Assembly (NCBI GenBank): GCA_050261675.1
Contig: JBLNDO010000023.1
Coordinates: forward strand, 74,261 to 138,260
DNA from: Bacillota bacterium
GTDB taxonomy: Bacteria; Pseudomonadota; Gammaproteobacteria; Natronospirales; REEB76
Length of the DNA stretch: 64,000 nucleotides
Reading direction: 5' to 3'
Position 1 is the first letter of the stretch. Each line of letters opens with the position of its first letter. Of this stretch, positions 12,820 through 43,547 are shown piece by piece. A program made the translations under genes and the position numbers. The notes under the pieces were generated by a model. That model saw only the letters and a list, made by a program, of their open reading frames with translations. It had not been told where the DNA came from and did no database searches.

Positions 12820-13743
12820 ATGAGCGACAAAAACACCAAAGGCCGCGACCGGGACCTGCAGCCCGAGAGAGGGGCACCGGCCGGTGCACCCAACGACGAA
12901 TCCCATGTCGAGGTACTGAGGGAGCTGGTGGCCCACCTGCGCCAGAACCGCACGCAACTGCGCGAGGTATGGGCGAGCCGCATCATGGGTTCGCGGTTCC
13001 TCACCGCCATGACCAACGAGGAAATCATGGCGGAAGCAAGTTCCGTGTACGACAACTACCTCGGCGCCCTGGAGACGGGCTCCATCGAAGCCCTCGAAGC
13101 CTACGCCCGAGACCTCTCCGAGCGCATCATCCCCCGCGGCGTCGAGACCCACGAAGTGGTGGGTATCGTGCTGCTGCTGCGCGACGTGCTGGCCCGCTCG
13201 CTGTTTTCCAAGTACGGCCAGAACCAGCAGATCCTGACGCGGGTGCTGGATGCCTACGAACCCGCGGCGAACCGCATCGCCACCACGGTGGCGGTGGGCT
13301 TCGTGCAGGAGCGCGAGCGCATCATCCGCCAGCAACAGGAAGCCATACGCGAGCTGTCCACGCCAGTGCTCGCGGTGCGCGAGCGCCTGTTGATCCTGCC
13401 GATCATCGGCATCCTCGACCCACAACGCGCGCGGCAATTGACCGAGCAGCTGTTGCGGGGCATTCGCATCAACCGCGCCCGGGTGGTGGTGATGGACCTG
13501 ACGGGTGTGCCGGCGGTGGACGCCGCCGTCGCCAACCACTTGGTGCAGACGGTGGAAGCCGCCCGCCTGGTCGGCGCCGACGTGATCGTCACCGGCCTCG
13601 CGCCGGAACTCGCCCAGACACTCGTGACCATCGGCGTCGACCTCGGCAAGATGGCCACGGTGGGCGACCTGCAAGGCGGCATCGAGGAAGCGGAAAAACT
13701 CCTGGGTTACAAAGTCGTACCGAGCGTCGAAGCCGCCGAATAA
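12820..13743 (+). CDS. rsbR: RsbR-like stressosome sensor (N-terminal non-haem-globin-like domain + STAS)
   Basis: 307-aa ORF preceded by a GAGGAG Shine-Dalgarno. The C-terminal STAS domain reads ELSTPVLAVRERLLILPIIGILDPQRARQL...VVVMDLTGVPAVDAAVANHLV...VIVTGLAPELAQTLV. Confidence 0.85.
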   Translation: MSDKNTKGRDRDLQPERGAPAGAPNDESHVEVLRELVAHLRQNRTQLREVWASRIMGSRFLTAMTNEEIMAEASSVYDNYLGALETGSIEALEAYARDLSERIIPRGVETHEVVGIVLLLRDVLARSLFSKYGQNQQILTRVLDAYEPAANRIATTVAVGFVQERERIIRQQQEAIRELSTPVLAVRERLLILPIIGILDPQRARQLTEQLLRGIRINRARVVVMDLTGVPAVDAAVANHLVQTVEAARLVGADVIVTGLAPELAQTLVTIGVDLGKMATVGDLQGGIEEAEKLLGYKVVPSVEAAE

Positions 13744-13752
13744 AGGACCGCC

Positions 13753-14136
13753 ATGGAAGTCCCTATACTAAAACAGCGCAATTACCTGATTGCGTCTGTA
13801 CAGGCGGTCCTGACCGACCAGGACCTCGTCAACCTCCGCGACCGGTTGGTCGCCCAGGTGGGGCGATACCGGTCTGTGGGCGTGATCCTCGACGTGACCG
13901 GCCTCGACGTCATGGATTCCTTTTCGGTGCGAACACTGCGCGACATGGCGCACATGATCCGGCTGCGCGGCGCCGACACCGTCATCGTAGGCATCCAGCC
14001 CGAAGTCGCATTCTCCATGGTGCAGCTCGGGTTGAGCCTCGAGGGTGTCCCCACCGCACTCGACCTGGAGGAAGGCCTGGCATACCTCGACGCGCGGCCG
14101 AAGCGCGTGAGTGCCGGTGCGATGAGCAATAAATGA
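13753..14136 (+). CDS. rsbS: RsbS-like STAS scaffold protein
   Basis: 127-aa single-STAS ORF (PILKQRNYLIASVQ...ILDVTGLDVMDSFSV...VIVGIQPEVAFSMVQLG) that keeps the D-S-F serine. Confidence 0.85.
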   Translation: MEVPILKQRNYLIASVQAVLTDQDLVNLRDRLVAQVGRYRSVGVILDVTGLDVMDSFSVRTLRDMAHMIRLRGADTVIVGIQPEVAFSMVQLGLSLEGVPTALDLEEGLAYLDARPKRVSAGAMSNK

Positions 14137-14591
14137 TCGAGCGACCCGACCCCCCTCCCCCGGACGCAGGGAAGGCGGCGGAACAGCAACAAGGCAGGAT
14201 CACGATCCCCATACGGGCCGTGGCGGACATCGTTACCGCGCGCCAGCATGGGCGGCAACTTGCGCTAAATTCCGGCTTCACGGAAACCGAATCCACGCTG
14301 ATCGCCACCATCATCTCCGAGCTGGCGCGCAACATCGTGCTTTATGCCGAGACCGGCGAGATCATCCTCGAGAAAGCCACCAACAGCGCCAGCCACCGCG
14401 GCATCACGATCGTCAGCCGCGACCAGGGGCCTGGCATTCCCGACGTACAGCGGGCATTGGTGGGTGGTTATTCGACCTCCGGCGGGCTGGGACTCGGGCT
14501 CTGCGGCGTGCGCCGCATGGTGGACGAGTTCTACATCGAGACGGGGGCCGGAAAGGGAACCACGGTCACGGCGAAGAAATGGCTGCAGTGA
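14133..14591 (+). CDS. rsbT: RsbT-like switch serine kinase (GHKL ATPase, anti-sigma regulatory factor type)
   Basis: 152-aa ORF whose start overlaps the rsbS stop (ATGA at 14133-14136). It has the N box (ELARNIVLYA), G1 (DQGPGI) and G2 (GGLGLGL). Confidence 0.85.
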   Translation: MIERPDPPPPDAGKAAEQQQGRITIPIRAVADIVTARQHGRQLALNSGFTETESTLIATIISELARNIVLYAETGEIILEKATNSASHRGITIVSRDQGPGIPDVQRALVGGYSTSGGLGLGLCGVRRMVDEFYIETGAGKGTTVTAKKWLQ

Positions 14592-15193
14592 TCGACAAAA
14601 AAGTCATCGAATCCGCCTCGGCGGTCTTCACCCTGCCGGGCCAAAGCGAGTCGGGAGACCGGCACGTCATCCTGCACCTGCCCCACGGCGCGTTAGTCGC
14701 GGTCATCGACGGGCTGGGACACGGCAGCGAAGCCGCGGCCGCGGCGCAGCGGGCCGTGGTGAACATAGAACAGTACGCGGAAGGCGATTCGCTCATCGCG
14801 CTGGTGAAGCGCTGCCATGCGGCGCTCGTCGGCACCCGCGGCGCGGTGATGAATCTGGCGGCGTTTGACACGCGCGAAGACACGCTCACCTGGCTCGGGA
14901 TCGGCAACGTGGAGGGCCGTATCCTGCTCAGGACCACGAACCCGGGCTATGCGCAGCAGGGCCTGTTGCTGCGCCCAGGGGTCGTTGGCCAGAAACTCCC
15001 CCGCTTGCAGACCTCGGTCACGCGCGTGCAGCGCGGCGACATGGTGATATTCGCCACCGACGGCATCGATCCCGACTTCGTCGAAGGCGTGCATACCGGC
15101 GACAGCACCCAGGAGATCGCCGAGCGCATCGTCACCCGTTATTGCAAGAAGAACGACGACGCCCTGGCGCTCGTCGTCAGGTACCTCGGTTGA
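14579..15193 (+). CDS. rsbX: RsbX-like PP2C/SpoIIE-family feedback phosphatase
   Basis: 204-aa ORF overlapping the rsbT end by 13 nt. Motifs are GDRHVI..., VIDGLGHGSEAA and IFATDGI. Confidence 0.8.
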   Translation: MAAVIDKKVIESASAVFTLPGQSESGDRHVILHLPHGALVAVIDGLGHGSEAAAAAQRAVVNIEQYAEGDSLIALVKRCHAALVGTRGAVMNLAAFDTREDTLTWLGIGNVEGRILLRTTNPGYAQQGLLLRPGVVGQKLPRLQTSVTRVQRGDMVIFATDGIDPDFVEGVHTGDSTQEIAERIVTRYCKKNDDALALVVRYLG

Positions 15194-15199
15194 AATGGG

Positions 15200-16141
15200 A
15201 TGCGCGACCCAGCCTCCCTCGATCTCGCAGGAATGTACAGGCAGGCACTCAAGCAATACCTGGCGAACGGCGGCGAAGCTCCGCTCCACCAGGCCTATGA
15301 GCTGGGACGGCAGGCGCTGGATTCCGGCATCGGCTTGCTCGGCCTGGTGAACATCCACCAGGAGGCGACGGCCAGCATGCTCAAGGATGCGAATGGAGAC
15401 GCCCTGCGCCGCTTTCGCGACGCCCACCACTTCCTGCTGGAAAGCATGGCGCCCTTCGAGATGATGCAGGTCGGCAACCGGGAATCTAACGCCGCGCTGC
15501 GCCGCCTGAACGCCATCCTGGAAGAGGAAGCGAAACGCATCGCCCACATCCTGCACGACGAGGCGGCGCAGCTGCTCGCCTCGGTATACCTCGAGCTCGC
15601 CGAGATACTCCGCGAGACGCCCCCGGCGCAGATCCGCTCCCACGTGGAGCGCATCACCTCCCACCTCGACCAGGTGCGCGAGCAGCTGCGGCGGCTCTCC
15701 CACGAGCTGCGTCCGCCCATATTGGACCAATTGGGCCTGTTGCCGGCGCTCCAGTTCCTGGCCGACGGCTTCCGCAAACGGAACAATCTCCAGGTCGAAC
15801 TGGAGAACGGCGTCACGGTCGATGGCCGACTGCCCCAGGGCATCGAAACCGCGCTCTACCGCGCCGTGCAGGAGGCACTCACCAACGTGGTTCGCCATGC
15901 CAATGCCCGTTGCGCCTGGATACGGGTATGGACCAACAAGGGAACCGTCTATTGCACCGTGCGGGACGACGGCGTCGGTTTTACACCCGCTACCGAAGGC
16001 GCCGACGTGCGCCCCCGGGGGCTGGGCCTGCTAGGCATACAGGAGCGCATCGGCAGCCTGCACGGCAACTTCAACGTGACCTCCATGCCCGGCGCAGGCA
16101 CGGAGCTTTACATCGGCATCCCACTTGGAGGCAACGTATGA
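15200..16141 (+). CDS. Cytoplasmic HisKA_3/HATPase histidine kinase with an RsbU_N-like N-terminal domain
   Basis: 313-aa ORF with no TM segment. It has the H box (AHILHDEAAQLL), N box (QEALTNVVRHA), G1 (DDGVGF) and G2 (GLGLLGIQER). The N-terminal ~90 aa (YRQALKQYLANGGEAPLHQAYELGRQALDSGIGLLGLVNIHQEA) resembles, from memory, the RsbT-docking N domain of RsbU. Confidence 0.8.
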   Translation: MRDPASLDLAGMYRQALKQYLANGGEAPLHQAYELGRQALDSGIGLLGLVNIHQEATASMLKDANGDALRRFRDAHHFLLESMAPFEMMQVGNRESNAALRRLNAILEEEAKRIAHILHDEAAQLLASVYLELAEILRETPPAQIRSHVERITSHLDQVREQLRRLSHELRPPILDQLGLLPALQFLADGFRKRNNLQVELENGVTVDGRLPQGIETALYRAVQEALTNVVRHANARCAWIRVWTNKGTVYCTVRDDGVGFTPATEGADVRPRGLGLLGIQERIGSLHGNFNVTSMPGAGTELYIGIPLGGNV

Positions 16142-16773
16142 TGACGCAAACCATACTACTAGCCGACGACCACTTCGTGTTCCAACAGGGCCTGAAGGCC
16201 CTATTGGAACGCGAGGGCTTCGATGTAGTGGCGGAAACCAAGGACGGCCACGAGGCGGTGCGCCTCAGCCGCCAACTCAGCCCCGATGTGGCGGTGCTCG
16301 ACATCGGCATGCCGCTCCTGAACGGCATCGACGCCGCCCGCCAGATCCTCAAGCAGAGCCCCGGCACCCAGGTGGTAGTGCTCACCATGTACGAGGAGGA
16401 TGCCTACGTGCTGGAAGCCCTGCGGGCCGGCATCCGCGGCTACGTGCTCAAGGCCCAGGCGGCGGCGGACCTGGTGGCCGCCATCCGCGAGGTATCGCGC
16501 GGGGCGGTGTACCTCAGCCCGGGCGTCTCCAAGACGGTGGTGGACGCCTACATGGGCAAATCCGAGCTGCCGCTCGACCCCCTCACCGACCGCGAGCGCC
16601 AGGTGCTGCAATTGGTGGCGGAAGGCAAGACCACGAAGGCGGTCGCCGACATCCTGGGCCTGAGCGTCAAGACCGCGGACTCACACCGCACCCGCATCAT
16701 GCAGAAGCTGGAAATCCACGAGACCGCGAGCTTGGTCCGCTATGCGATCCGCCGGGGGTTCATCAAGCCATGA
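16138..16773 (+). CDS. NarL/FixJ (LuxR-HTH) response regulator, copy 1
   Basis: ATG at 16138 overlaps the kinase stop (ATGA). Receiver domain (LLADDH, DVAVLDIGMP) plus a LuxR HTH (LTDRERQVLQLVAEGKTTKAVADILGLSVKTADSHRTRIMQKL). The ORF-track extension back to 15910 lies inside the kinase gene. Confidence 0.9.
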   Translation: MMTQTILLADDHFVFQQGLKALLEREGFDVVAETKDGHEAVRLSRQLSPDVAVLDIGMPLLNGIDAARQILKQSPGTQVVVLTMYEEDAYVLEALRAGIRGYVLKAQAAADLVAAIREVSRGAVYLSPGVSKTVVDAYMGKSELPLDPLTDRERQVLQLVAEGKTTKAVADILGLSVKTADSHRTRIMQKLEIHETASLVRYAIRRGFIKP

Positions 16774-16942
16774 GCTTGCCGGCCCCCATACGAACAATAT
16801 GTCCGGTTTACCTTCACCGGGTCCCAACCCCCATACGTACACCGTAATATTCCGGATTGCCTGTCGCGCGGCCGATATTTATAAGTTAAGTACCCGATCC
16901 CGGGTCCTAGAGAAAGCGGCTCCCGCAACATGGTCCAAACCG

Positions 16943-17356
16943 GTGCAGACCCCTCACAGCCACTGCGTCTTCCTGAAGCAACATAATTACCTGATCGTCT
17001 CCATCCAGACGCCCCTCACCGACGCGGAATTTTCCGCCCTAGGGGGGCAAGTCGCAGAGTTGATCATGAGCTACCACTCGAACGGCGCGGTATTGGACCT
17101 GTCGGGGTTGGACGTGGTGGATTCCTTCTCGGTGCACAACCTGAGGCGTCTGTGCGAGACGCTGCGACTCTATTCCGTGACCACGGTGATTACCGGAATA
17201 CGGCCCGCGATCGCGATCTCCATGGCCATCCGCGGCCTCGCACTCAGCCTGAAGGGCGTAACGATCGCGGCGGACTTGAGTGCCGCCGTGGAGCTGCTCG
17301 ACACGGCCGCGGGCTATCCGGCCACACCCGGAGAGTCCTATCCCAGCCTGCATTGA
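16943..17356 (+). CDS. Second, stand-alone RsbS-like STAS protein
   Basis: STAS core FLKQHNYLIVSIQTPLTD...VLDLSGLDVVDSFSV...VITGIRPAIAISMAIRG aligns with RsbS (13753-14136) at roughly 40-45% identity by eye. The start (GTG 16943) was chosen by alignment and is uncertain. A sigma70-like TTGCCT-17-TATAAG lies at 16857-16885. Confidence 0.7.
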   Translation: MQTPHSHCVFLKQHNYLIVSIQTPLTDAEFSALGGQVAELIMSYHSNGAVLDLSGLDVVDSFSVHNLRRLCETLRLYSVTTVITGIRPAIAISMAIRGLALSLKGVTIAADLSAAVELLDTAAGYPATPGESYPSLH

Positions 17357-17566
17357 TCACCGCTGTTCCCGTACGGGTATTCTCCCGATGGACTCTAAGG
17401 TTCCGCCCCGCCGGAAATACGCGTATTAACACGCCGAACTAAGGTGCTTGATTCACGATTTGCAGGTATTTACTCGATTCCTCGCATGGGGGCATTACCC
17501 CATAGTTTTCCGAAGCGCGTATCGTTTTCACGCGGAGTCGCCTTTTCTCCGCAGGAGACCAGACGG

Positions 17567-18196
17567 ATGCAGCGCATCTTGTTGGCTGACGATCACCCGA
17601 TGTTCCAGCAGGGGCTCAAGGCCCTGTTGGAACGCGAGGGCTTCGACGTGGTGGCGGAAGCCAAGGACGGCCACGAGGCAGTGCGCCTCGGGCGCCAACT
17701 CAGCCCCGACGTGGCGGTATTGGACATCGGCATGCCGCTCCTGAACGGCATCGACGCCGCCCGCCAGATCCTCAAGCAGAGCCCCGGCACCCAGGTGGTG
17801 GTGCTCACCATGTACGAGGAGGAGGCCTACGTGCTGGAGGCCCTGCGGGCCGGCATCCGTGGCTACGTGCTCAAGGCCCAGGCGGCAGCCGACCTGGTGG
17901 CCGCCATTCGCGAGGTATCGCGCGGGGCGGTGTACCTCAGCCCGGGCATCTCCAAGACGGTAGTGGATGCCTACATGGGCAAATCCGAGCTGCCGCCCGA
18001 CCCCCTTACCGACCGCGAGCGCCAGGTGCTGCAGCTCATCGCCGAGGGGAAGACCACCAAGCAGATCGCGGAGATCCTGGGCCTGAGCGTCAAGACCGCG
18101 GACTCCCACCGCACCCGCATCATGCAGAAACTCGAGATCCACGAGACCGCGAGCCTGGTCCGCTACGCCGTGCGCAGGGGTTTCATCAAGGCCTAA
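17567..18196 (+). CDS. NarL/FixJ (LuxR-HTH) response regulator, copy 2 (near-duplicate of copy 1)
   Basis: ATG at 17567 (MQRILLADDH). I counted 13 differences in ~204 residues aligned to copy 1, with long identical DNA stretches (for example gacatcggcatgccgctcctgaacggcatcgacgccgcccgccagatcctcaagcagagccccggcacccaggtgg). Confidence 0.9.
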   Translation: MQRILLADDHPMFQQGLKALLEREGFDVVAEAKDGHEAVRLGRQLSPDVAVLDIGMPLLNGIDAARQILKQSPGTQVVVLTMYEEEAYVLEALRAGIRGYVLKAQAAADLVAAIREVSRGAVYLSPGISKTVVDAYMGKSELPPDPLTDRERQVLQLIAEGKTTKQIAEILGLSVKTADSHRTRIMQKLEIHETASLVRYAVRRGFIKA

Positions 18197-18199
18197 ACG

Positions 18200-18895
18200 A
18201 TGCCCTCCAGGATGGAACCACACATGAACAGCGCCTTGCAGATCCCGGCACCGGTCGGGCAACAACCGGTACGGATCCTATTGGCGGACGATCACAGCAT
18301 ATTCCGCCAGTGCCTGTGCATGCTGTTGGAACGGGAGGGGTTCGAAGTGGTGGGTCAAGCCTCCGGGGGACAGGAGGCGGTGGGACTGGCGCAATCGCTG
18401 CATCCGGACGTGGTCATCCTCGACTACAGCATGCCGGACATGAACGGCATCGACACCGCCCGCGCCATGCAGAAAGCGGTGCCCGGGGCCCAGACGATCC
18501 TGCTGACCGCCCAGGAGGACAATGCCAACGCCATCGAGGCCCTGCGCGCCGGCATGCACGGTTATATCTACAAGTCGCAGACCGCCGAGGAGCTGGTGGG
18601 GACGGTGCGGGAAGTCGCGGGAGGGGCCATCCATTTCAGTGCGCGGCTACCGCCCATGGCCATCGAGAGCTACATCACGCACATGGGCCGCGAGTCCGAC
18701 CCGCTGACCGAGCGGGAACGGCAGGTCCTGCGGATGATCGCCACCGGCAACACCACGCGGGCGATCGCGAAGGAACTCGGCCTGAGCGCCAAGACCGTGG
18801 AATCCCATCGCAGCCGCATCATGCACAAGCTGCATCTGCACCGGGCCGCCGAACTGATCCGCTACGCCATCCGCCGCCAGCTCATCACCCCTTAA
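18200..18895 (+). CDS. NarL/FixJ (LuxR-HTH) response regulator, copy 3 (divergent)
   Basis: Starts 4 nt after copy 2. Receiver domain (ILLADDH, DVVILDYSMPDMNG) and HTH (LTERERQVLRMIATGNTTRAIAKELGLSAKTVESHRSRIMHKL). Confidence 0.85.
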   Translation: MPSRMEPHMNSALQIPAPVGQQPVRILLADDHSIFRQCLCMLLEREGFEVVGQASGGQEAVGLAQSLHPDVVILDYSMPDMNGIDTARAMQKAVPGAQTILLTAQEDNANAIEALRAGMHGYIYKSQTAEELVGTVREVAGGAIHFSARLPPMAIESYITHMGRESDPLTERERQVLRMIATGNTTRAIAKELGLSAKTVESHRSRIMHKLHLHRAAELIRYAIRRQLITP

Positions 18896-19265
18896 AACTC
18901 TCCCTGCACAAAACCACCTCGCTGTCACTCAGGGAAACCCTGAGTCGCTAACAGAACGCAACGCACGCTTTGTGTGATGCGGCTCACACTATCTATTTCG
19001 TTTACTAACAGTTGGGGTTTTTTTTAGAGTTCCGTTACACACGGCAGGTATATCTGCACGTGCCGGTAAGGTGTCTACCGCAGGGTCTCTACCCGAAGGA
19101 AAGCACCCGAACGTCATGATGCGGGATATACGGGCAACCGCCCCGATTCACGTTGTGACATAACGGCACTGGATCCGCAGGGCGACGCAACACGCCTTCA
19201 TGCCCAGTGACCTCCGGCAAGCGCGCTCGCAAGAGCACCCGAGCAATGCCACTGAGGTTACGAGC

Positions 19266-22200
19266 ATGACAACGTGTATCAGCCCCTTCCGCCGGTTCAG
19301 CCGGCTTATCGCAATCGGCGCCCTGGCGCTTGCATCGCTGTTCGCCGCGAGAGCGGTCTGCGCGGATACCGCCACAGGCGGCTTCCTGGAAAGCGACGAG
19401 ACCTCCGTGGTCCGCGGCCTGCTGAGCCAAAGCACGATCAACGGTTTCCTGCCGCAGCGCGGCGCATTCACCTTCCCGGCGCCCTACAACACCCAGGGCA
19501 TCCGCGTCACCAACTCGAGCGACTGTGGCGGGCAGGATTGCGTGGACATGATCTACTCGTACTGGCGCAACATGAGCAACAGCGCGGGCAGCAACACCAT
19601 GTACATCTTCATCGGCCTGGACCGCAACCGCGGCGGCCAGGGCCCGACACTATTCAGCTACGACAAGAGCACCGGGCAGCTGACCGAGGTGGGCCCGCTG
19701 TTCGACTCTTCCAGCTCGTACAGCTGGAACAGCGGCGAGGGCTGGTACTTCAGCTACGGCATGCCCACCAAGATCTACATGCAGGACGGCTCGAAGCTGT
19801 TGCGCTACGACGTGCTGGCGCACACTTTCGAGACCGTGTTCGATTCAACCAGCCAATACCCGAACACGGTCATCCGGCAGACCAACTCCAGCAACAACGA
19901 TGACGTGCACTCCGCGACCCTGGAGGACGCCAGCACCTGGCAGCCCACGGCCTGCATCGCCTACAAGGCGAGCACGAATCAGTTCTTCTACTTCGCCGTC
20001 CAGGGCCACTTCGACGAATGCCAGATCGACAAGAGCGGCCGCTACCTCGAGATCAAGGAAAAGCTGCCCAGCGATCCCTGCTCGAGTTGCGACGAGGACG
20101 ACGTGATCGAGGACCTGCAGGCCGGCACCGAAAAGGTGCTCTACGACCAAGCCGGCGCCGGCGGCCATTCCGACCTCGGCTACGGCACCATGGTGGCGGT
20201 GGACAACTGGAACAACTACGCCAATGCCTGGCGCTTGTGGGACCTGTCCTCACCGTTTCCGACCGCGCAGGGACAAGGCGGCGCCACGAACCTGGGCTTC
20301 GCCCAAGGCGGCCTTGTTTACCACAACCTGAGCTGGAGCGCGTTCAACCCCTCGCACATCAGCTATGAGAACGCGAACACTTCCGCGCCCGTGAGCCAGC
20401 AGTACGCCTGCGGCGGCGCGGTGAACACGACCATTGTGCCCCAGTCCAATGACATCATCTGTTTCCTGCTCAACCCGGCAGTCCCGGCTTCGTCGGAGCA
20501 GGCTCTGATCGTTGCTCCGGTCATGACGGACATGAGCGCCAGCGGCGGCAGCGCCACCTGCCCGAGCTGCGTGGCCTACGGCCAGGATCCCAAGGGCAAC
20601 CTGGACCCCACCGGCCAGTACTTCTTCTGGGTCAGCAACATGGGCGGCAGCCGGATGGATGCCTTCATCGTGAAGGTCCCATACCAACTCCTGACCGGCT
20701 CCAGCGGCACCGGCGGCACGAGCGGCGGCACCACTGACACCACGCCTCCGACCGTTTCCATCTCCAGTCCGGCGGCAGGCGCGTCCCTGACCGGCAGCGT
20801 CACGGTTTCCGCGAACGCATCCGACAATATCGGCGTGGCGAGCGTGCAGTTCAAGCTGGACGGCGCCAACCTCGGCTCCGCCCTCACCCAGGCGCCTTAC
20901 AGCCTCTCTTGGGATACCACCGCCGTGGCCGCGGGCACGCACACCCTGACCGCGGTGGCGACCGACACCTCCGGGAACACCGCGACCTCCTCGTCGGTGT
21001 CCGTGACGACGGTGCTGCCGGTGTTCCCGCCGACGATCTCGAGCGTCGCTTCCTCCGTCACCGGCTCGTCAAGCGCGAGCGTCAGCTGGACCACCGATCA
21101 GGCCAGCAATTCGCAGGTGGCCTTCGGCACCACCACGGCCTACGGCACCACCACCACGCTCAACACAAGCATGGTGACCTCGCACTCCATGAGCCTCTCG
21201 GGCCTCGCCGCGAGCACCACGTACCACTACCAGGTGATTTCGGCGAACTCGTCAGGCCAGCAGTCGGTGTCCGCGGACTACACGTTCACCACCCAGGCGG
21301 GCGGCAGCACGACCCTGCCCTCGACCACCGCCAACTGGCACCTGAACGCCACCAGTGGCACCACCGCCATCGACAGCTCGGGTAACGATCACACCGGTAC
21401 CCTGGTCAACGGCCCGGCCTGGACCGCCGGCGTCGCAGGTAACGGTCTCGCGTTCAACGGCACGAACCAGTACGTGACGGCGGCGAGCAAAGGCCTGAAC
21501 CTGTATCCGCTCACCGTGTCCGCGTGGTTCAAAACCTCGTCCACCAGCGGCCTGCACGGGCTCGTGAACAAATACAACGTCAGCTCCATGAACGGCTATC
21601 AGGTGTTCATGAGCAACGGCAACCTGTGCGCCTGGTACTTCCGTGACAGCGCCGACTACGTCTGGGACGGCAGCGGGTGCACCCTGAACACGTCGGGCTA
21701 CGCGGACAACCAGTGGCACATGGTGACCTACACCGTGAATTCCGCCGGCGGCAAGCTCTACGTGGACGGCGTCCTCAAGGCGAGCCGCGCCTGGACAGGC
21801 GTGGCAGGCGCCACCACCTCCGGTGCGGCCCTCAGCATGGCCCGCTATCCCGGGGTCAGCTCGCCGTATCTCGCCGCCACCCTGGACGAGGTGCGCCTGT
21901 ACAACAGCGCCCTCTCAGCGTCCCAGGTCGCCGCCCTCTATGCGAGCTTCCCGCTGGTGATGCCGGTGGCCTGGACCAACCTGGTGAACCTGACGGCGAA
22001 CGGCGGCAGCCTGACGAAGACCGGCGGCTGTGACGGTTGCGAGGACGCCACCGCCAATTCCCAGCAGCAGATCGCCCTGGGCGCGAGCGGCTACTTCGAG
22101 TTCACCGCCTCCGAGACCAACACGCTGCGCTATGCGGGCCTCACGAGCACCAGCTCCGGCCCCGGCTCAAGCAACATCGGCTACGCCATCCGGCTGCAGA

Positions 22201-22424
22201 GCGGCGATGCGGCGGTCTACGAGGGCGGTATCTACAAGACTGACGTGAGCTTCTCCTCCGGCGACGTGTTCCGCATCGCCGTGGGCGCCGGCGTGGTCAA
22301 CTACTACAAAAATGGGACTGTGTTCTACACCAGCAACACTGCTCCATCTTCGGCCCTGATAGCCTCGGCGGTGATCTGTAACATCAACGGCACCATCACG
22401 AGCGCCGTGATCAAGACCCAGTAG
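19266..22424 (+). CDS. Secreted multidomain protein: unassigned ~480-aa N-domain + Ig-like repeat + FN3-like + LamG/concanavalin-like + C-terminal domain
   Basis: ATG 19266 follows GAGG and opens a signal peptide (RLIAIGALALASLFAARAVCA). It has one Big_7-like repeat (TTPPTVSISSPAAGASLTGSVTVSANASDNIGVASVQFKLDG...) and an FN3-like segment (ASVSWTTDQASNSQVAFGTT...YHYQV). A LamG-like segment follows (GNGLAFNGTNQYV...LTVSAWFK...LDEVRLYNSALSASQV). Confidence 0.85.
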   Translation: MTTCISPFRRFSRLIAIGALALASLFAARAVCADTATGGFLESDETSVVRGLLSQSTINGFLPQRGAFTFPAPYNTQGIRVTNSSDCGGQDCVDMIYSYWRNMSNSAGSNTMYIFIGLDRNRGGQGPTLFSYDKSTGQLTEVGPLFDSSSSYSWNSGEGWYFSYGMPTKIYMQDGSKLLRYDVLAHTFETVFDSTSQYPNTVIRQTNSSNNDDVHSATLEDASTWQPTACIAYKASTNQFFYFAVQGHFDECQIDKSGRYLEIKEKLPSDPCSSCDEDDVIEDLQAGTEKVLYDQAGAGGHSDLGYGTMVAVDNWNNYANAWRLWDLSSPFPTAQGQGGATNLGFAQGGLVYHNLSWSAFNPSHISYENANTSAPVSQQYACGGAVNTTIVPQSNDIICFLLNPAVPASSEQALIVAPVMTDMSASGGSATCPSCVAYGQDPKGNLDPTGQYFFWVSNMGGSRMDAFIVKVPYQLLTGSSGTGGTSGGTTDTTPPTVSISSPAAGASLTGSVTVSANASDNIGVASVQFKLDGANLGSALTQAPYSLSWDTTAVAAGTHTLTAVATDTSGNTATSSSVSVTTVLPVFPPTISSVASSVTGSSSASVSWTTDQASNSQVAFGTTTAYGTTTTLNTSMVTSHSMSLSGLAASTTYHYQVISANSSGQQSVSADYTFTTQAGGSTTLPSTTANWHLNATSGTTAIDSSGNDHTGTLVNGPAWTAGVAGNGLAFNGTNQYVTAASKGLNLYPLTVSAWFKTSSTSGLHGLVNKYNVSSMNGYQVFMSNGNLCAWYFRDSADYVWDGSGCTLNTSGYADNQWHMVTYTVNSAGGKLYVDGVLKASRAWTGVAGATTSGAALSMARYPGVSSPYLAATLDEVRLYNSALSASQVAALYASFPLVMPVAWTNLVNLTANGGSLTKTGGCDGCEDATANSQQQIALGASGYFEFTASETNTLRYAGLTSTSSGPGSSNIGYAIRLQSGDAAVYEGGIYKTDVSFSSGDVFRIAVGAGVVNYYKNGTVFYTSNTAPSSALIASAVICNINGTITSAVIKTQ

Positions 22425-22440: not shown

Positions 22441-22503
22441 CGGGACCTTGCCGTCTGCAGTAACCCTCGGGTTACGGATGGGCGGCAAGGTCCCGGTTTT
22501 TTT
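22441..22503 (+). terminator. Rho-independent terminator of the 19266-22424 gene
   Basis: 13-bp stem cgggaccttgccg (22441-22453) / cggcaaggtcccg (22483-22495) with a structured loop, then gTTTTTTT (22497-22503). The 3' arm overlaps the last codons of the convergent epimerase ORF. Confidence 0.55.
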
Positions 22504-23464
22504 CCACATGGGCCGTACGCTCCTGGAAACGCTCCAGGGCGAACCACTTGCGGTACCAGTCGACCGTCTCCTTCAAACCTTCCTTGAAACCCACCCGCGG
22601 CGCATAGCCGAGTAGCTCCCGCGCCTTGCCGATATCGGCCTGGGAGTGTTTCACGTCGCCGGTGCGCGACGGCTCGAAATGGGGCTTGAGCTGCTCGCCG
22701 AGGAAGTCCTCAAGCGCCTCCACCAGGTCCAGCAGGCTGCGGCGCTCGCCGCAGGCCACGTTGATGACCTCACCCGCGGCCCGCGGCGCGGTCGCGGCTG
22801 CGATGGTCGCGTCCACTGCGTTCGCGACATAGGTGAAATCCCGGGACTGGGTGCCGTCGCCGTAGATGACCGGAGCCAGGCCTTTCAAGCCGGCGTCGAT
22901 GAACCGCGGTATGACCGCCGCGTATTCCGACTTCGGATCCTGGCGCGGCCCGAACACGTTGAAGTAACGAACACAGGCGGTCTCGAGACCGAAGGCTTCC
23001 CAGTAGACGCGGCAATAGTGCTCGCCGGTGAGTTTCGAGACCGCATAGGGCGACGCAGGCGCCGGCTTAGCGTCCTCGCACTTCGGCAGCGTCGCCAGGT
23101 TGCCGTAGGCTGACGAGGATGCGGCATAGACAACGCGCTTGACGCCGGCCCGGCGGCTCGCATCCAGCACATTGAGGGTCCCGGTCTCGTTGACCGCGTG
23201 GGTGGCAAGGGGATCGCGGAGCGATCTCCCTACGGAAGCAAGCGCCGCCAGGTGGAAGACATGGTCCATGCCCTCCACCGCGCGCCAGACGCACCCCGGG
23301 TCACGGACATCCCCCTCCAGGAGCTCCACCGGCAGGCTCGCGACATTGTCGCGCTTGCCCGTGGAAAAGTCGTCCAAGACCCATACATCATGGCTCTGGT
23401 GCAACAGCGCGCGTGCCAGATGCGAGCCGATGAAGCCGGCTCCGCCTGTGATCAGACATTTCAT
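22472..23464 (-). CDS. NAD-dependent nucleotide-sugar epimerase (extended SDR, WbpP/TviC-like)
   Basis: Start MKCLITGGAGFIGSHL (ATG 23464). Catalytic YAVSK is present, with full-length extended-SDR architecture. Confidence 0.85.
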   Translation of the reverse strand: MKCLITGGAGFIGSHLARALLHQSHDVWVLDDFSTGKRDNVASLPVELLEGDVRDPGCVWRAVEGMDHVFHLAALASVGRSLRDPLATHAVNETGTLNVLDASRRAGVKRVVYAASSSAYGNLATLPKCEDAKPAPASPYAVSKLTGEHYCRVYWEAFGLETACVRYFNVFGPRQDPKSEYAAVIPRFIDAGLKGLAPVIYGDGTQSRDFTYVANAVDATIAAATAPRAAGEVINVACGERRSLLDLVEALEDFLGEQLKPHFEPSRTGDVKHSQADIGKARELLGYAPRVGFKEGLKETVDWYRKWFALERFQERTAHVEKNRDLAAHP

Positions 23465-23618
23465 GGCAGGTACCTCATGCTGAACGGAAAAACTGAGCCG
23501 CGACGGCGGCAAGCAGGACGCCGGTGACAGGCATCCACGGCTCAACGTGCGCAGGAAGGCGCGCCGATGGGCGAAGAACTAGGGGAACGGAATGCAGGAA
23601 GGAGAGGCGGTAACCCTT

Positions 23619-24074
23619 TCAGCGTCCGCTGACCTTGGTCTCGCGGTGATAATCGTCCTCCAGACGCACGATATCGTCTTCGCTGAGGACGTCGCCCTTC
23701 TGCACCTCGACGATGCATACGGGGACCGGCCCGGAATTCCCCAGGCGGTGAGCATCCCCCGCCGGGATGAACGCCGAGTCATGCAGGCCGAGCTCGACGG
23801 CACAGCCGCCGATCACGGCGTCCGCCCTGCCCGCCACGCACACCCAATATTCGCTGCGGTGACGGTGGTATTGGAGGCTGAGACGGTGCCCGGGGTGCAC
23901 CTCGATGAGCTTCACCTTGACGCCCTCAGCCTCATACAGCACCGTCCAGCTGCCCCAAGGCCGGGTCACAGGCTCGACAGGTGCCGTCAGCGCCGTTGGC
24001 GCAGGGTGGGCCTTGGAAGCGATATTCAGATCCAATTCCTGTTTCATGGGCGCTCCTCCGGTATCAGAGTTCAT
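23619..24074 (-). CDS. Cupin protein, type II phosphomannose isomerase C-terminal-domain-like
   Basis: RPWGSW...[31 protein letters not shown] is the PMI type II cupin signature. The start overlaps the glmS stop as ATGA (24074-24071). Confidence 0.7.
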
Positions 24075-25897
24075 TCGACGGTGACGGATTTGGCGAGGTT
24101 GCGGGGCTTGTCCACGTCGTTGCCGCGCTTCAGGGCGGTGTGATAGGCAAGCAGTTGCACCGGGATGGCGTGTACGACGGGCGAAAGGACGCCCGCGTGC
24201 CGCGGCGTGCGGATCACGTGCACGCCTTCACTCTCCGCGAACCGGCTGTCCTGGTCGGCGAACACGAAGAGTTCGCCGCCCCGGGCCCTGACCTCCTGCA
24301 TGTTGGATTTCAGCTTCTCCAGGAGGGCGTCGTTAGGGGCGATGATCACTACCGGCATTTCCCGATCCACGAGCGCCAGGGGGCCGTGCTTCAACTCGCC
24401 GGCGGGATAGGCCTCGGCGTGCACATAGGAGATTTCCTTGAGCTTGAGCGCCCCCTCGAGGGCGATGGGGTAATGCACGCCACGGCCCAGGAAGAGCGCG
24501 TGCTGGCGGTCCGCGAAGCGCTGCGCCCAGGCGCTGATCTGAGGCTCGAGGTTGAGCGCGTGCTGCACCGCCTCCGGCAGCTGCCGGAGGCAGAGGCCGT
24601 AGGCTTGCTCAGCGGCCGATTCCAGCAGGCCGCGGGTCTTCGCGAGAGTCACCGCCAGGATGAACAGGGAGACAAGCTGGGTCGTGAAGGCCTTGGTGGA
24701 GGCGACGCCGATCTCGGGCCCCGCCCGGGTGTGGAAGGTGAGCGCCGACGCCCGCGGTATGGCGCTTTCCGGCACGTTGCAGACGGACAGGGTGCGCTCC
24801 TGGCCGAGCGCCCTGGCGTGTTTCAGGGCTTCCAGGGTGTCCAGCGTCTCGCCGGACTGGGAGACGGTGACCACGAGCTGCCGGGGGTTCGGCACGCTCC
24901 GGCGGTAGCGGTATTCGCTTGCGATTTCCACGGATACCGGCAAACCGGCCAGTGCCTCGATCCAGTAACGCGCGGTGAGCCCCGCGTAATGGCTGGTCCC
25001 CGCTGCGAGCACCAGCACCGAATCCAGGTCGCCGAAGAGCTCCCCGGCGCCGGCGCCGAACTGGCTCGGGGCGAAGCCGGTTTCCAGCGCGGGCTTCGCG
25101 GTCTCGGCGAGCGCGGCGGGCTGCTCGTGGATCTCCTTCTGCATGTAATGCCGGTAGGAACCCAGTTCCAGGGCCGCCAGGGCCACGTCGCTCACATGCA
25201 CCCGGCGTTCCGTCGGCCGGCCGGCGCGGTCCACGACTGCCACACGCAAATCCCTCAGCTGCACCACGTCCCCGTCTTCCAGGTAGATCACCCGGCGGGT
25301 GGCGGAGAGTACCGCCGAAACGTCCGAGGCCAGGAAGTTCTCGCCTTCCCCGAGTCCCACCAGCAGCGGACAGCCCATGCGGGCGCCGGTGATCACATCT
25401 GGGTTCTTGAGGGAAAGCACGCCGATGGCATAGGCCCCCACGAGCTGACGTACCGCCTCGCGGGTGGCCCGGAACAGGTCGCCGTGCTGCTTCAGGTGCC
25501 AGTGGATGAGGTGGGCGATGACCTCGGTGTCGGTCTGGGACGAGAACGTGTAGCCCAATTCCTTGAGGCGCGCACGCTGCTCCTCATGGTTCTCGATGAT
25601 GCCGTTGTGCACCACCGCGATCTCGCCCATGGAGATGTGCGGGTGGGCATTGGACTCGGTCACGCCGCCGTGGGTGGCCCAGCGGGTGTGCCCGATGCCG
25701 GCCAGTCCCGCTAGCTTCTCCGTCCGCGCTCGGTCTCGCATCTCCGCCACGCGACCTACGCTGCGCACGCGGCGGATGCCACCATTCAGCACGGCGATGC
25801 CAGCCGAGTCGTAGCCGCGGTATTCGAGCCTCTGAAGGCCCTCGATCAATAACGGCACCACATTGCGCCCCGCCACCGCCGCCACTATCCCGCACAT
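24071..25897 (-). CDS. glmS: Glutamine--fructose-6-phosphate aminotransferase
   Basis: N-terminal MCGIVAAV (catalytic Cys2) and canonical C-terminus [13 protein letters not shown]. 608 aa from ATG 25897. Confidence 0.9.
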
Positions 25898-25922
25898 GCA
25901 CCCATCTCCATATTGCAACCGC

Positions 25923-27107
25923 TCAGCCGGCCCTCCGCTCCCAGGTAACCTGTTGCCGCCCGTTCAAGAAGCGGACGAAAGCCACCACCGTCGCCCAGTT
26001 CAAGAGGCAGAATGCGTAGGGCACGTTGAGGAAGAACGGACGGCGCGCTGCACCCCGCGTCAAGTAACCGAGAAAGGCGGCGATATAGAACGCCGCCTGG
26101 GCGGCGAACAGGCCGGTGTAATCGGGGTCAGCCAGAAGCAACAGGTTCGAGCCAAAGACCGCAGCCAGGCCCAAAGGGCTCAGTAGGCGGCAAGCCTTGT
26201 GGGAGACGGTCTGGACCCACAGCCGATTGCTGAACGGGTTCAGGAGCCAAGGCCGCAGGACAAGGAGCTGGAAATTGCCAGCGATGGTGCGCAGCTTGCG
26301 CATGAATTCCTCGCGCGCCGTCGCCGTCACCCAGTCATAGGCGCGGGCACGCGGCTCGAACAGCACGCGATAACCCTGGCGGACCACCTCCATGGGAATC
26401 AGCACGTCATCCAGGATCGTGACCGCGGGTATGGGCATAAAGAGCGAGCGGCGCAGGGCGTAGATCGCGCCGGTGACACCCACCGACGAATCGACGCGGC
26501 TCTCGTGCAAGCGCATGAACTTCTCGTAACGCCAGTAGAAGTCGACGCCCTTTCCGACCTCCGAGCGGCCTGGCCCATCCAGGAGCACCAGTTCGCCGCT
26601 CACGGCGCCCACCTCCGAGTCCGAAAAGCACTCGGCAAGCGCGCGCAGGGCATTGGCCTCGAACCGCTGCCTGACGTCGGCAAGCACCACGATCTCCCCC
26701 TTCGCCCGGGGAATTACATCGTTGAGCACCGCGCTCTTGCCGCGCCGCTGACTGAATTCGATCACCTGGACGTACTCGGAGTGGTAATTCCGTGCTTGCT
26801 CCGCCGTCGTGTCCGTGGAACCATCCGAAGCGAGGATCAGGTCGAGGCGGTCCCAGGGGTAATCCAGGTCCAGGAAATTCTCCAGGCGCTGCTGAATGCG
26901 CCGCGCCTCATTGTGTGCCACGACTACCAGGGTCATGCATGGCAGCAATGGGCTCGTCCGCAGTGGACGTGGGCTCAGCCACGACCACAGGCGGATGAGC
27001 AGCGGATATCCGATGTACGTGTAGAGCAGGAACGCGATCGACGTCCAGAAGACCGCGTACGCACCCGTGATGTCTACCATGACGCGCCCGACCTCAATGT
27101 TTGCCAA
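25923..27107 (-). CDS. Membrane-bound glycosyltransferase family 2
   Basis: N- and C-terminal TM segments flank a GT2 core ([11 protein letters not shown]...[12 protein letters not shown]...VLADVRQ). Start uncertain (27107 or 27080). Confidence 0.8.
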
Positions 27108-28842
27108 AACAGGAGGGGACGTTGTTCGCGAGCGATATGCCGCCGTAGGTCCTCAGGGCGGCACACAATTCATCGATATCGGCGCCGATGTCCTTGCCAT
27201 CGTCGCCGGCTGAATGGAAGTCGCTACCTGGCGCGAGCCGGTAATCTCCACTGGCGGCATCGATGAAATTGACGCCGGCGATGGTCCTCGGAAAATAGTT
27301 GCCGGACGGATAGGCTGCTGCGGGCGCGCCGATGATGACGTTCTTATGGACGTCGGCGTCCGGGAAATACACCTCCAAGGTCGCGTCGCCTACCCCGGTA
27401 TTGGTGCCGATGATGCCGTAGGCGTTGTGCGGGGCGATGTTGTCGGCGTACCTGAAACCGGAATGCGGATGTCCGTCGCTGAAGACGATGCTGCCGGTCT
27501 GCAGCGAGGTATTGTGCATCACGTGCACATCCAGAGTGCCGTCGTTCATCGCCAGCAGCACCCCCTGCCCCCACACCCCGCCCACGTCGTCGAACAGGTT
27601 GTTGGCGATCAAGATGCGCTGTGTCTGCCGGCTGGGGGCATTGTTGTCAAAGCCGAGGACGTTGACGCCATTCGCCACATGCCGGATCACGTTGTCGGTG
27701 AAGCTGACGTCCTGCACCACGGACCAGGGCGCGCTGCCGTTTTGGTCCCGCACCGTGAAAAGCACGGAGAAACCGTCCTGGGACTGCGCCCAGTTGTATT
27801 CGAACACGTTGCCCTCCACGAGCACGCGTTGGGCGTTCTTGAGCTCGAACAGGTTCTTGATGGTCCAATTGGTGCCCTGGTAACCCGGATCTCCGGACTT
27901 CCAGGCGAGCTGCTTGCTGAAATGGTTGCCGCGCACCTCGATGTCGGAGGGCACGAGATTCGGGATGCTCGGATCCTCCCCTCCGAACATCACGTTCTCA
28001 CCCGCGGCTTCCAGGTAGTCATCCGTGATCTTGAACGGGCCGGGGCCGTTCCAGGCCGAGAGCGCCTGGCTGTCTTCACCGGCCTCCTTGAAATCGGAGA
28101 GATAGGAATCAATGACGGCGATGTTCGCGCCGTTCATGGCCACGCCCCGCCGCGCACCCACCACGGGATCCCCGTGCAGGTAGCAGCGATCAAAGATGAT
28201 GTGGTGCGGCAGCGTCGCGATGTTGGTGTCCGCGTTGCCCAGGTTCACGAGGTTTTCCAGGAACGCCACCGCCGGCGTGGAACCGGCCGGCTCCCTTCCT
28301 CCGCCGTCGTGCCACAGATCATGCAGCCAGCCGAGGGCGCGCCGCATGGACATGGCGACGGGTGCGCCCGGGCGGATCTCCAGGCCGATGAAGCGGTAGT
28401 GGTGTGCGCCGTTGGCGGTCAGCATCACCGACTGGGACGCCGCTTCGAGCTTGGGCATGGCGGGCGCATCGGTGGGCGTCACCCGGCCGCCGGGGGGTGG
28501 CAGGGTGGACATGGCACTGGACTGGACTGTGATCCAGCCATCGCCGTGTTTCGCCGGCAGGGTAAAGGGGCCGGTGTAGACCGCGCCGGCCTGCAGCACG
28601 ATGAGGTCCCCCGGCGCGGCGTGGTCGAGTGCGGCTTGGAAGTCTCCGCCCGCGGCAACGTTCAGCGTCCTGCCCGTCGGGGCCACATAGCGCGTATCCA
28701 CGTACTGCCGGGGCGGCTCGGGATTATGGCGCGTCTCGACTTCCGCTGACGTGGTGTGGCAGCCGGGCGTGATCAGGACCGGACTGACAGCGCCGGACGC
28801 GAGGACGAAGGTGTAAAAGGCTCGGATGACGAGAGTGTGCAT
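27094..28842 (-). CDS. Lipoprotein with right-handed parallel beta-helix fold (polysaccharide lyase / C5-epimerase-like)
   Basis: ATG 28842 follows GGAGGAGG. Lipobox ITPG|C. Beta-helix repeat pattern (NNLFDDVGG..., HNTSLQTG..., ADNIAPHN...) with the tail GDYRLAPGSDFHSAGDDGKDIGA typical of this fold. Confidence 0.65.
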   Translation of the reverse strand: MHTLVIRAFYTFVLASGAVSPVLITPGCHTTSAEVETRHNPEPPRQYVDTRYVAPTGRTLNVAAGGDFQAALDHAAPGDLIVLQAGAVYTGPFTLPAKHGDGWITVQSSAMSTLPPPGGRVTPTDAPAMPKLEAASQSVMLTANGAHHYRFIGLEIRPGAPVAMSMRRALGWLHDLWHDGGGREPAGSTPAVAFLENLVNLGNADTNIATLPHHIIFDRCYLHGDPVVGARRGVAMNGANIAVIDSYLSDFKEAGEDSQALSAWNGPGPFKITDDYLEAAGENVMFGGEDPSIPNLVPSDIEVRGNHFSKQLAWKSGDPGYQGTNWTIKNLFELKNAQRVLVEGNVFEYNWAQSQDGFSVLFTVRDQNGSAPWSVVQDVSFTDNVIRHVANGVNVLGFDNNAPSRQTQRILIANNLFDDVGGVWGQGVLLAMNDGTLDVHVMHNTSLQTGSIVFSDGHPHSGFRYADNIAPHNAYGIIGTNTGVGDATLEVYFPDADVHKNVIIGAPAAAYPSGNYFPRTIAGVNFIDAASGDYRLAPGSDFHSAGDDGKDIGADIDELCAALRTYGGISLANNVPSCFGKH

Positions 28843-30146: not shown

Positions 30147-30171
30147 GATCTTGTGCCTCCCGACAGGGGTT

Positions 30172-31742: not shown

Positions 31743-31779
31743 GAGTACTACACGCGGCCGGTCGTGCCGGTGACGCAGG

Positions 31780-34907: not shown

Positions 34908-34923
34908 GGCACGGCTCCTCGTT

Positions 34924-39442: not shown

Positions 39443-39450
39443 ACGGCGAT

Positions 39451-40479: not shown

Positions 40480-40497
40480 GGCGATACGCGGCGCCTT

Positions 40498-42411: not shown

Positions 42412-42445
42412 TGCATATTGCTCCTTGAGGATCGTGACCTGCGGC

Positions 42446-43525: not shown

Positions 43526-43547
43526 GGCGTGTTGGCCACAGGGGGCA

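Follow-up and report, generated by a model that had tools for sequence, protein, structure and literature searches.

The window analysed here is a 64,000-nucleotide (nt) stretch of contig JBLNDO010000023.1 (positions 74,261 to 138,260; assembly GCA_050261675.1), and it contains a minus-strand exopolysaccharide (EPS) locus of ~39.5 kb (22472-62027) with a plus-strand gene on either side. The first of these genes, copy 1, encodes a secreted multidomain protein of 1052 amino acids (aa); the second, copy 2, is present with its first 202 codons, and the two products share a long N-terminal domain that is the subject of this work. Translation of copy 1 starts at ATG 19266, with a GAGG ribosome-binding site 8 nt 5' of the ATG, and the product is identical to NCBI protein MGE5624327.1, named only ‘LamG-like jellyroll fold domain-containing protein’. 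A promoter and terminator scan around the gene stayed at chance level. Using the whole copy 1 protein as a tblastn query, exactly two copies of the domain were found in the window, and the copy 2 fragment aligned to copy 1 with 69% identity over 176 aa (E = 6e-88), in agreement with the first-pass annotation of this DNA, which had called the two genes paralogs at about two-thirds identity. That annotation also had them flank a 40-kb EPS locus, which they literally do, with the qualification that copy 2 is set off from the locus by a TetR gene (62405-63118).

The full downstream paralog, whose recovery had been proposed at first pass, was obtained as the 626-aa protein P0014 (NCBI MGE5624362.1). 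It matches the copy 2 fragment at 201/202 residues, the difference being the GTG start, and resides on the same 170,530-bp NCBI contig as copy 1 and P0269, a putative β-helix protein 100% identical to that of the window; on these grounds we take P0014 to be full-length copy 2. Over the whole N-terminal domain, the window pair is 61% identical. Copy 2 continues with a Big_7 domain, a Gly/Pro/Ser linker, and the tail GGGVLGLGELSLLWLLLASKRRRRSVH; its NCBI name, too, was taken from an accessory domain only. The tail fits a three-part signal of a Gly-Gly motif, a hydrophobic helix, and a basic cluster, and a polyGly stretch followed by a hydrophobic helix and R/K residues also ends ~20 of the 25 members compared from a class of ~600-aa relatives. 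Judged by its sequence, this architecture is that of GlyGly-CTERM rhombosortase signals, and we refer to it as GlyGly-CTERM-like and to its bearers as the anchored short form. The NCBIfam GlyGly-CTERM model TIGR03501 did not match P0014 and scored 10.6 bits (cutoff 15.5) against P0006, a relative of copy 2 described below, while for P0017 and P0020, the matches stay far below cutoff and cover nothing but the C-terminal ends of GlyGly-CTERM protein models. No rhombosortase candidate was noticed among the annotated genes of the window, in which no search aimed at rhombosortase was made. Copy 1 lacks such an end.

The N-terminal domain had been left unassigned at first pass, and it withstood assignment here as well: residues 1-494 of copy 1 gave no match in Pfam-A 2025 or NCBIfam 20.0 (in Pfam even at E ≤ 10), and none among PDB sequences, with a single sequence or a profile, at E ≤ 10. 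More than 1,100 relatives were found in 5.8 billion proteins, the nearest at 75-82% identity, all of them named hypothetical or after an accessory domain. An exhaustive profile search of 1.84 billion cluster representatives (50%-identity clusters) delimited the family to 1,091 representatives at E ≤ 1e-3 and 414 at E ≤ 1e-30. Thus, the domain constitutes a discrete, previously uncatalogued family.

An AlphaFold2 model built on a 38-sequence alignment (pLDDT 88.8, pTM 0.89) is all-β with ~28 strands, and therefore seven four-stranded blades, so that residues ~30-490 are predicted to form a seven-bladed β-propeller. Searching this model with Foldseek, a check suggested at first pass, returned as the two best PDB matches the oligogalacturonate lyases of polysaccharide lyase (PL) family 22, 3C5M and 3PE7 (E ~2e-11, TM 0.54/0.65, 10-11% identity). 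TolB, WD40, kelch, and GH74 propellers came next in the list, from E ~6e-8, i.e., the PL22 fold matches with an E-value ~3,000-fold better than generic propellers. The best structural match overall was BFVD entry A0A8E5NQ64, an unnamed viral protein of 1,172 aa (E = 2e-16, root-mean-square deviation (rmsd) 4.6 Å, 15% identity).

Conservation was mapped on 102 near-full-length representatives with mutual identity ≤50%, using the full-protein numbering of copy 1. Residues conserved at ≥85% include R80, T82, D86, W100, N104, K134, S163, Y171, H215, E251, D255, H301, D303, D313, H364, N369, Q379, E396, Y438, D447, W455, N458, R463, and D465, with N458 reaching 100%, H301 95%, H215 89%, Q379 87%, and H364 86%. 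Twelve of them (R80, K134, E251, H301, D303, H364, Q379, E396, D447, N458, R463, and D465) make up a conserved polar core, and three cysteine pairs (87/92, 230/252, and 382/399) are likewise conserved. The polar residues differ from blade to blade, with no per-blade repeat, and are found mostly in inter-strand loops or at strand ends; because they are non-repeated and so placed, they would form one site at the mouth of the central channel, the usual signature of such a site in a propeller.

Each of the 120 closest proteins carries the propeller at its N-terminal end, with a variable set of non-catalytic modules behind it. The commonest architecture is propeller plus Big_7 only, ~600 aa long; others have the propeller alone, with an FN3-LamG pair, or with the domain that ends copy 1 (aa 896-1052), alone or combined. 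More distant proteins reach 1,755 aa by adding only further Big_7, FN3, or LamG units, never another catalytic domain. For copy 1, the first-pass domain list held up as far as it went: the Big_7 unit is of the same type as those of the 6557 and 10412 proteins (63-68% identity by tblastn within the window), and the FN3-like (aa 594-676) and LamG/concanavalin-like (aa 731-889) domains were recovered by Pfam, with Pur_ac_phosph_N above cutoff and fn3 just below it in the former. A fifth domain, aa 896-1052, had been missed. It carries a conserved KTGGCDGCxD motif, has no match in Pfam, NCBIfam (E ≤ 10), or PDB sequences, and was modelled (pLDDT 95.4) as a concanavalin-A (ConA)-like jelly-roll with weak and equal similarity to GH16, PL7, SPRY, and VIP36 lectin folds, from which we read it as a putative second lectin-type module. 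Separately, three neighbouring secreted proteins (6557-9538, 9566-10048, and 10412-11572, plus strand) have in common a CE2_N-like module of ~125 aa, with 40-56% identity between copies, and Big_7 repeats; the order of this trio is kept on L079, a 110-kb contig from another genome considered below.

To place the propeller gene in context, every window protein was compared by tblastn with the loci found in a genome scan that used one genome per species; the scan gave 214 matched stretches, and counts refer to the best 78 of these 214. Their hosts include Gammaproteobacteria (Pseudohongiella, Porticoccaceae, Lysobacterales), Acidobacteriota/Vicinamibacterales, Rokubacteria, NC10/Methylomirabilota, Nitrospirota, Verrucomicrobiia (Verrucomicrobiota), Binatia, Polarisedimenticolia, and others. 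At least three genes of the EPS locus, referred to as the cassette, accompany the propeller in a conserved convergent order in 49/78 loci, from at least eight phyla; most of the remaining 29 loci have shortened flanks. The recurrent order is regulators, one to three tandem propeller genes, and then the convergent cassette. The cassette opens with the epimerase and continues with a family 2 glycosyltransferase (GT2; 52 of the 78 loci), a 582-aa protein (43), a nucleotide-sugar dehydrogenase (39), sometimes a deacetylase with a formyltransferase, a GT4 (38), an AsnB-like amidotransferase (40), a heparinase II/III-like protein (26), and a second GT4; the aa 896-1052 domain accompanies the propeller in 45. 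The distal EPS genes (those for Wzy, Wzz, the kinase, the priming transferase, the flippase, and others) are all but missing from the flanks. The conserved partnership is that of copy 1 only, and it extends to the proximal ~15 kb of the locus, not to the whole 40 kb.

Regulators of the kinds found in the window, with two or three of the LuxR type, are also present in at least 22 loci from several phyla. In the window, the regulatory block runs in the order OmpR-type response regulator, two STAS proteins, RsbW-like kinase, SpoIIE phosphatase, RsbU_N-HisKA_3 histidine kinase, LuxR response regulator, STAS protein, and two further LuxR response regulators. This conserved partner-switching/two-component block suggests a stress-type control of the EPS system. 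Two minus-strand open reading frames (ORFs) in the same stretch, 12601..13674 (357 aa) and 14693..15898 (401 aa), were rejected as genes, since comparison with L079 showed them to be antisense to STAS/RsbW/SpoIIE; they match other loci by tblastn because the sense genes are conserved, a trap at 64% GC. As for the source of the window, the ‘Bacillota bacterium’ label of its metagenome-assembled genome (MAG), whose locus tags begin with ACM3ZT_, is probably wrong: all close relatives are gammaproteobacterial MAGs, the GC content is 64%, and the Wza-like and porin-like outer-membrane export proteins and the GlyGly-CTERM-like signal also speak against it.

Table 1. Features of the window, with positions counted from its first nucleotide.
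Feature	Position	Strand	Basis or remark
Copy 1 gene, secreted multidomain protein of 1052 aa	19266..22424	+	ORF 19200..22424, ribosome-binding site, NCBI match
Putative Sec-type signal peptide, MTTCISPFRRFSRLIAIGALALASLFAARAVCA, cleavage before D	19266..19364	+	by eye; hydrophobic segment aa 14-32
Unassigned N-terminal domain, aa 30-495, predicted seven-bladed β-propeller	19353..20750	+	searches, alignment, AlphaFold model
Big_7 bacterial immunoglobulin (Ig)-like domain, aa 495-563	20748..20954	+	Pfam
FN3-like domain, aa 594-676	21045..21293	+	Pfam
Laminin_G_3/ConA-like domain, aa 731-889	21456..21932	+	Pfam
Second unassigned domain, aa 896-1052, predicted ConA-like/SPRY jelly-roll	21951..22421	+	model and comparison of loci
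Copy 2, first 202 codons	63395..64000	+	alignment to copy 1; full product P0014
Regulatory block upstream of the propeller gene	11660..18895	+	conserved in other loci
Proximal EPS cassette: epimerase/dehydratase, ManC-type cupin, GlmS-like, GT2, β-helix lipoprotein, NDP-sugar dehydrogenase, deacetylase, formyltransferase, GT4 (stp1-like), AsnB-like amidotransferase, heparinase II/III-like, GT4	22472..38288	-	
582-aa lipoprotein-like, probable right-handed β-helix protein of no family	27094..28842	-	cassette partner in 43/78 loci
Distal EPS part, not conserved with the propeller: HAF-repeat protein, sulfotransferase, second AsnB, deacetylase, flippase, FemAB-like, GNATs, adenylation enzyme, luciferase-like, GT4, Wzy_C, dehydrogenase, CofD, priming transferase, tyrosine-kinase ATPase, Wzz, Wza-like, porin-like outer-membrane protein, UpxY/RfaH-like antiterminator	38285..62027	-	window proteins against loci
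Secreted protein of 912 aa, weak BNR/sortilin and FN3 signals, no firm family	3094..5832	-	ortholog lies between the paralogs in L079

The EPS locus is of the Wzx/Wzy type, with Bac_transf, a Polysacc_synt_3 flippase, Wzy_C, Wzz with GNVR, an AAA_31/ParA ATPase, and a Wza-like exporter, and its first gene is the UpxY/RfaH-like antiterminator. It further holds GT2/GT4 enzymes, two nucleotide-sugar dehydrogenases, two AsnB-like amidotransferases, a heparinase II/III-like protein, deacetylases, acyltransferases, an adenylation enzyme, and a sulfotransferase. Since the cassette combines a dehydrogenase with an AsnB-like amidotransferase, uronic acid or uronamide residues are implied in its product; to our knowledge, lyases act on such residues only.

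At its N-terminus, the 582-aa partner resembles a lipoprotein; it contains β-helix-like repeats and no transmembrane helices, and searches of Pfam, NCBIfam, and PDB sequences returned no match for it. It belongs to a very large family, with at least 7,414 of 8,000 scored candidates at E ≤ 1e-10, all ‘hypothetical’, and PF13229 Beta_helix precomputed for some members, and may represent a second uncatalogued candidate polysaccharide lyase or epimerase. A 637-aa ORF had been considered as a membrane polymerase and was rejected; it lacks transmembrane segments and corresponds to this lipoprotein-like β-helix candidate.

Two groups of EPS genes deserve a comment on the likely polymer. A dehydrogenase, a deacetylase-family protein, a formyltransferase-domain protein, a GT2, and an epimerase/dehydratase (28773-31898, 22472-23545, and 25923-27107, minus strand) are reminiscent of the Ugd/ArnA/ArnD/ArnC route to a formylated amino-pentose; an aminotransferase of the ArnB type was not seen, and the deacetylase/formyltransferase pair occurs in only 10-13 loci. 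The distal stretches 38285-40479 and 45047-50866 (minus strand) encode a HAF-repeat secreted protein, a sulfotransferase, a FemAB-like acyltransferase, GNATs, a stand-alone amino-acid adenylation domain, a luciferase-like monooxygenase, and a CofD-like transferase, a set that hints at an amino-acyl- or sulfate-decorated polymer. The best models for the GT4, both AsnB-like amidotransferases, the Wza-like exporter, and the outer-membrane protein are those of the XrtA/PEP-CTERM system; however, TIGR03087, TIGR03108, TIGR03027, and TIGR03016 all score below their curated cutoffs, neither an exosortase (among the unassigned proteins) nor a PEP-CTERM protein was found in the window, and the anchored paralog bears a GlyGly-CTERM-like signal, not PEP-CTERM. 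Membership of the XrtA/PEP-CTERM type was rejected for want of an exosortase and of any family score above cutoff.

Propeller relatives are not confined to bacterial genomes. Seven IMG/VR contigs encode them, at 33-41% identity and with no cassette or regulator genes nearby, and two of the seven, L085 and L086, clearly belong to phages. The large terminase of L086 (45% GC) shares 61% identity with those of N4-like Schitoviridae, and the L086 propeller forms the C-terminal part of a 571-aa ORF located two ORFs downstream of a gene with a weak tail-fibre match; the annotated N4-like relative gave no informative synteny. In L085 (40% GC), an ORF of at least 3,088 aa ends with the propeller. Over its first ~2,515 residues, this ORF shares ~41% identity with giant proteins of Xanthomonas/Stenotrophomonas jumbo phages, and this part has a distant relationship to proteins annotated as virion structural. 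The distal tips of phage structural proteins carry modules that bind or depolymerize host surface glycans, and the propeller likewise sits at the C-terminal end of both the giant L085 protein and the L086 protein. Characterized phage depolymerases are mostly trimeric β-helices, whereas the propeller is a different fold. The propellers of L085 and L086 keep R80, K134, E251, H301, D303, H364, Q379, and E396, as well as Y438, K443, D447, N458, R463, and D465, and they lack all three cysteine pairs, which fits disulfides needed only in exported bacterial proteins. No match to the propeller was found by tblastn in deposited phage genomes, and none of the phage records searched describes a propeller of this family. 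The other five contigs (L080-L084; 67-72% GC), classed as viral, encode propeller-only proteins of ~420-450 aa that lack the first and third cysteine pairs, with no cassette genes; they may be prophage cargo or misclassified bacterial DNA.

Because the gene is syntenic with the cassette, the product carries export signals, disulfides, and lectin-type modules, the fold is lyase-like, and phages use the domain at tail tips, the propeller can be read as a module that recognizes a specific surface polysaccharide. We consider it quite probable that its function is directed at the glycan of the cassette, and a dedicated role toward the neighbouring polysaccharide, already proposed at first pass, is strongly backed by synteny, fold match, and phage recruitment. 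Our main explanation, given a probability of about 0.5, is that the propeller proteins are glycan-acting modules for the uronate-containing EPS of the cassette, and that this action includes cleavage. Cleavage of that glycan by the propeller is putative, and we hold it at roughly even odds; that the enzyme would be a lyase is a more tentative proposal.

In this explanation, the protein would be exported by the Sec pathway, after which three disulfides would form in the propeller. A single polar site contributed by successive blades (H215, H301, H364, Q379, R80, K134, E251, D303, E396, D447, N458, R463, and D465, possibly with a metal) would bind the polymer and cleave it, most probably by β-elimination as in PL22, while the Ig-like and FN3 modules and the two ConA-like ones would keep the enzyme attached to the glycan. 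Copy 1 would be the released long form, encoded beside the cassette and downstream of the partner-switching/two-component regulators; copy 2 would be the short form, tethered to the cell surface by its GlyGly-CTERM-like signal. That the two genes now lie at opposite ends of the EPS locus would reflect a lineage-specific rearrangement of tandem paralogs.

Several observations weigh against cleavage by the propeller. No sequence-level link joins the family to PL22 or any CAZy-type family (~10% identity), the PL22 superposition has an rmsd of 8 Å and moderate TM-scores, and the site at the channel mouth was placed from strand topology. The accessory modules are also all of binding type, and Ig, FN3, and LamG modules with surface anchoring are equally typical of adhesins, just as phage tail tips can be pure binders. 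The cassette itself supplies two other candidate polysaccharide-cleaving or -modifying proteins, the heparinase II/III-like and β-helix proteins, and amidation of the AsnB type could deprive lyases of the free carboxylates on which they normally act. Finally, all 78 loci come from MAGs.

The comparison with PL22 illustrates both sides. The oligogalacturonate lyases (Ogl) of Yersinia enterocolitica (3PE7) and Vibrio parahaemolyticus (3C5M), the two best solved-structure matches, are seven-bladed propellers, and the likeness extends to the presumed tie of our propeller to uronic-acid glycans and to three His and one Gln that could form a metal site. In PL22, work by Abbott and colleagues from 2010 reportedly described a Mn2+ site of three His and one Gln, a catalytic His base, and an Arg. 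The propeller conserves H215, H301, H364, and Q379, as well as R80 and R463, as candidate residues for such a site. Ogl is a single-domain cytoplasmic enzyme acting on oligomers, whereas the propeller exceeds it by ~90 residues, is exported and disulfide-bonded, and comes fused to binding modules, and it has no match to Pfam Pectate_lyase22 or PDB sequences even at E = 10. Thus, membership in PL22 is not demonstrable: the fold agrees, and sequence and cellular location do not. Other lyases show that propellers can serve this chemistry: the PL24/PL25 ulvan lyases, the PL42 rhamnose-glucuronate lyase, and PL11 act on uronate polymers by β-elimination, with catalytic sets of His/Tyr/Arg and, in PL24/25/42, no strict need for a metal (PMC8377490). 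None of these four families is among the top 50 fold matches, and none is related to the propeller in sequence.

By analogy with matrix adhesins, the propeller could instead be a non-catalytic, lectin-like module of a scaffold or adhesin that binds the EPS, with copy 2 anchored and copy 1 cross-linking, an alternative we regard as somewhat unlikely. It would account for the binding-type character of every accessory module (Big_7, FN3, LamG, and ConA-like), for the surface-anchored form, for tandem paralog arrays with variable add-ons, for use at phage tail tips, which fits pure receptor binding, and for the lack of a sequence link to any enzyme family. However, the conserved residues are rich in His, Asp, Glu, Arg, and Lys and occur once each, differing by blade, with no repeated sugar-binding motif, and the polar core hardly changes even in phage copies with identities as low as 33%. 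The best-matching solved fold is that of an enzyme, and no lectin is among the 50 best matches listed. The Vibrio cholerae proteins RbmC and Bap1 are secreted propeller proteins with lectin-type add-ons encoded beside EPS (vps) genes, and their propellers are eight-bladed, of FG-GAP/VCBS type, with repeated Ca sites; they, too, are absent from those 50 matches.

A glycan-active enzyme of other chemistry, i.e., a glycoside hydrolase, an esterase/deacetylase, or an epimerase, is improbable. The evidence for an enzyme applies to it equally, E251, D303, E396, D447, and D465 could provide a hydrolase acid/base pair, GH74 propellers appear among the fold matches, and the heparinase II/III-like protein may already supply lyase activity; yet the best fold matches are PL22 and not glycoside hydrolase propellers, and the dehydrogenase-containing, uronate-type cassettes favour a lyase.

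The preferred reading, a glycan-acting propeller for the EPS of the cassette, has precedents in genomic arrangement. AlgL, PslG, PelA, BcsZ, and PgaB are extracytoplasmic, self-directed glycan-processing enzymes encoded beside their own biosynthetic genes, and the propeller gene has a comparably fixed synteny beside the cassette. Unlike these enzymes, which belong to other folds and families, the propeller gene is convergent to the operon rather than inside it and co-directional with regulators, often occurs in two or three tandem copies, and has secreted and anchored forms.

How the two paralogs came to bracket the EPS locus is best judged from other genomes. Three orthologous loci (L002-L004) have the gene order of the window and the full copy 1 architecture, and in these genomes the anchored short-form copies lie on other contigs, with no cassette gene in the stretch of flank retrieved (0.7-9.6 kb downstream). 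On L079, the order is regulators, P0006, a 912-aa gene, a 1041-aa copy 1 ortholog, and the convergent epimerase/ManC/GlmS genes. P0006 (633 aa) is of the anchored form and the closest relative of copy 2 (75%). The two propeller genes of L079 (10001-11902 and 15659-18784) differ in C-terminal architecture, and their N-terminal domains are 95% identical to each other, compared with 61-69% for the window pair, which indicates, as far as sequences can tell, recent gene conversion between tandem paralogs in the L079 lineage. The 912-aa gene between them (12343-15081) is 79% identical to the window gene at 3094-5832 (minus strand), and its product may belong to the same secreted toolkit as the propeller proteins.

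The first-pass annotation had offered the paralogs as possible remnants of a duplication that framed the horizontal acquisition of the whole 40-kb locus, and apart from the fact that both copies do flank the locus on the same strand, everything argues against this highly improbable scenario: on L079, the anchored and long forms are in tandem on one side, split only by the 912-aa gene, all five anchored short-form copies among the 78 loci are solitary, with no cassette genes in their flanks, the DNA 5' of the two window copies is unrelated, their similarity being confined to coding sequence, copy 2 differs from copy 1 in architecture and shares only 61-69% identity with it, GC is flat (0.62-0.67) across the locus, and no tRNA, integrase, or insertion sequence element was seen at its borders. 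Since the L079 paralogs are in tandem on one side of the EPS genes, the bracketing in the window appears to be a lineage-specific rearrangement of tandem paralogs that sets the window apart from L079, rather than a scar left by acquisition.

EPS loci that encode a processing enzyme for their own polymer are already well known, and a glycan-processing or -binding propeller beside EPS genes is known in kind, so no principle is overturned here. The family itself, the cassette, the coupling to regulators, the split into secreted and anchored forms, and the phage link appear to be new, none of them being described in the literature libraries we searched. The current database names of both window proteins derive from accessory domains, a practice that recognition of the propeller family corrects, and the cassette includes a second large unannotated family, that of the β-helix candidate. 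The soil and sediment lineages that carry propeller loci have essentially uncharacterized matrix polymers, and a defined residue set together with a partner cassette makes this polymer system experimentally approachable. A broader proposal, which we put forward with considerable reserve, is that the propeller founds a new polysaccharide-lyase (CAZy-type) family, as the signature enzyme of an undescribed, regulator-coupled uronate/uronamide EPS system, and that phages captured the module as a tail-tip depolymerase. This putative EPS system would be conserved across at least eight, mostly uncultured phyla, and the activity, if true, would add both a new family of carbohydrate-active enzymes and a new type of phage depolymerase.

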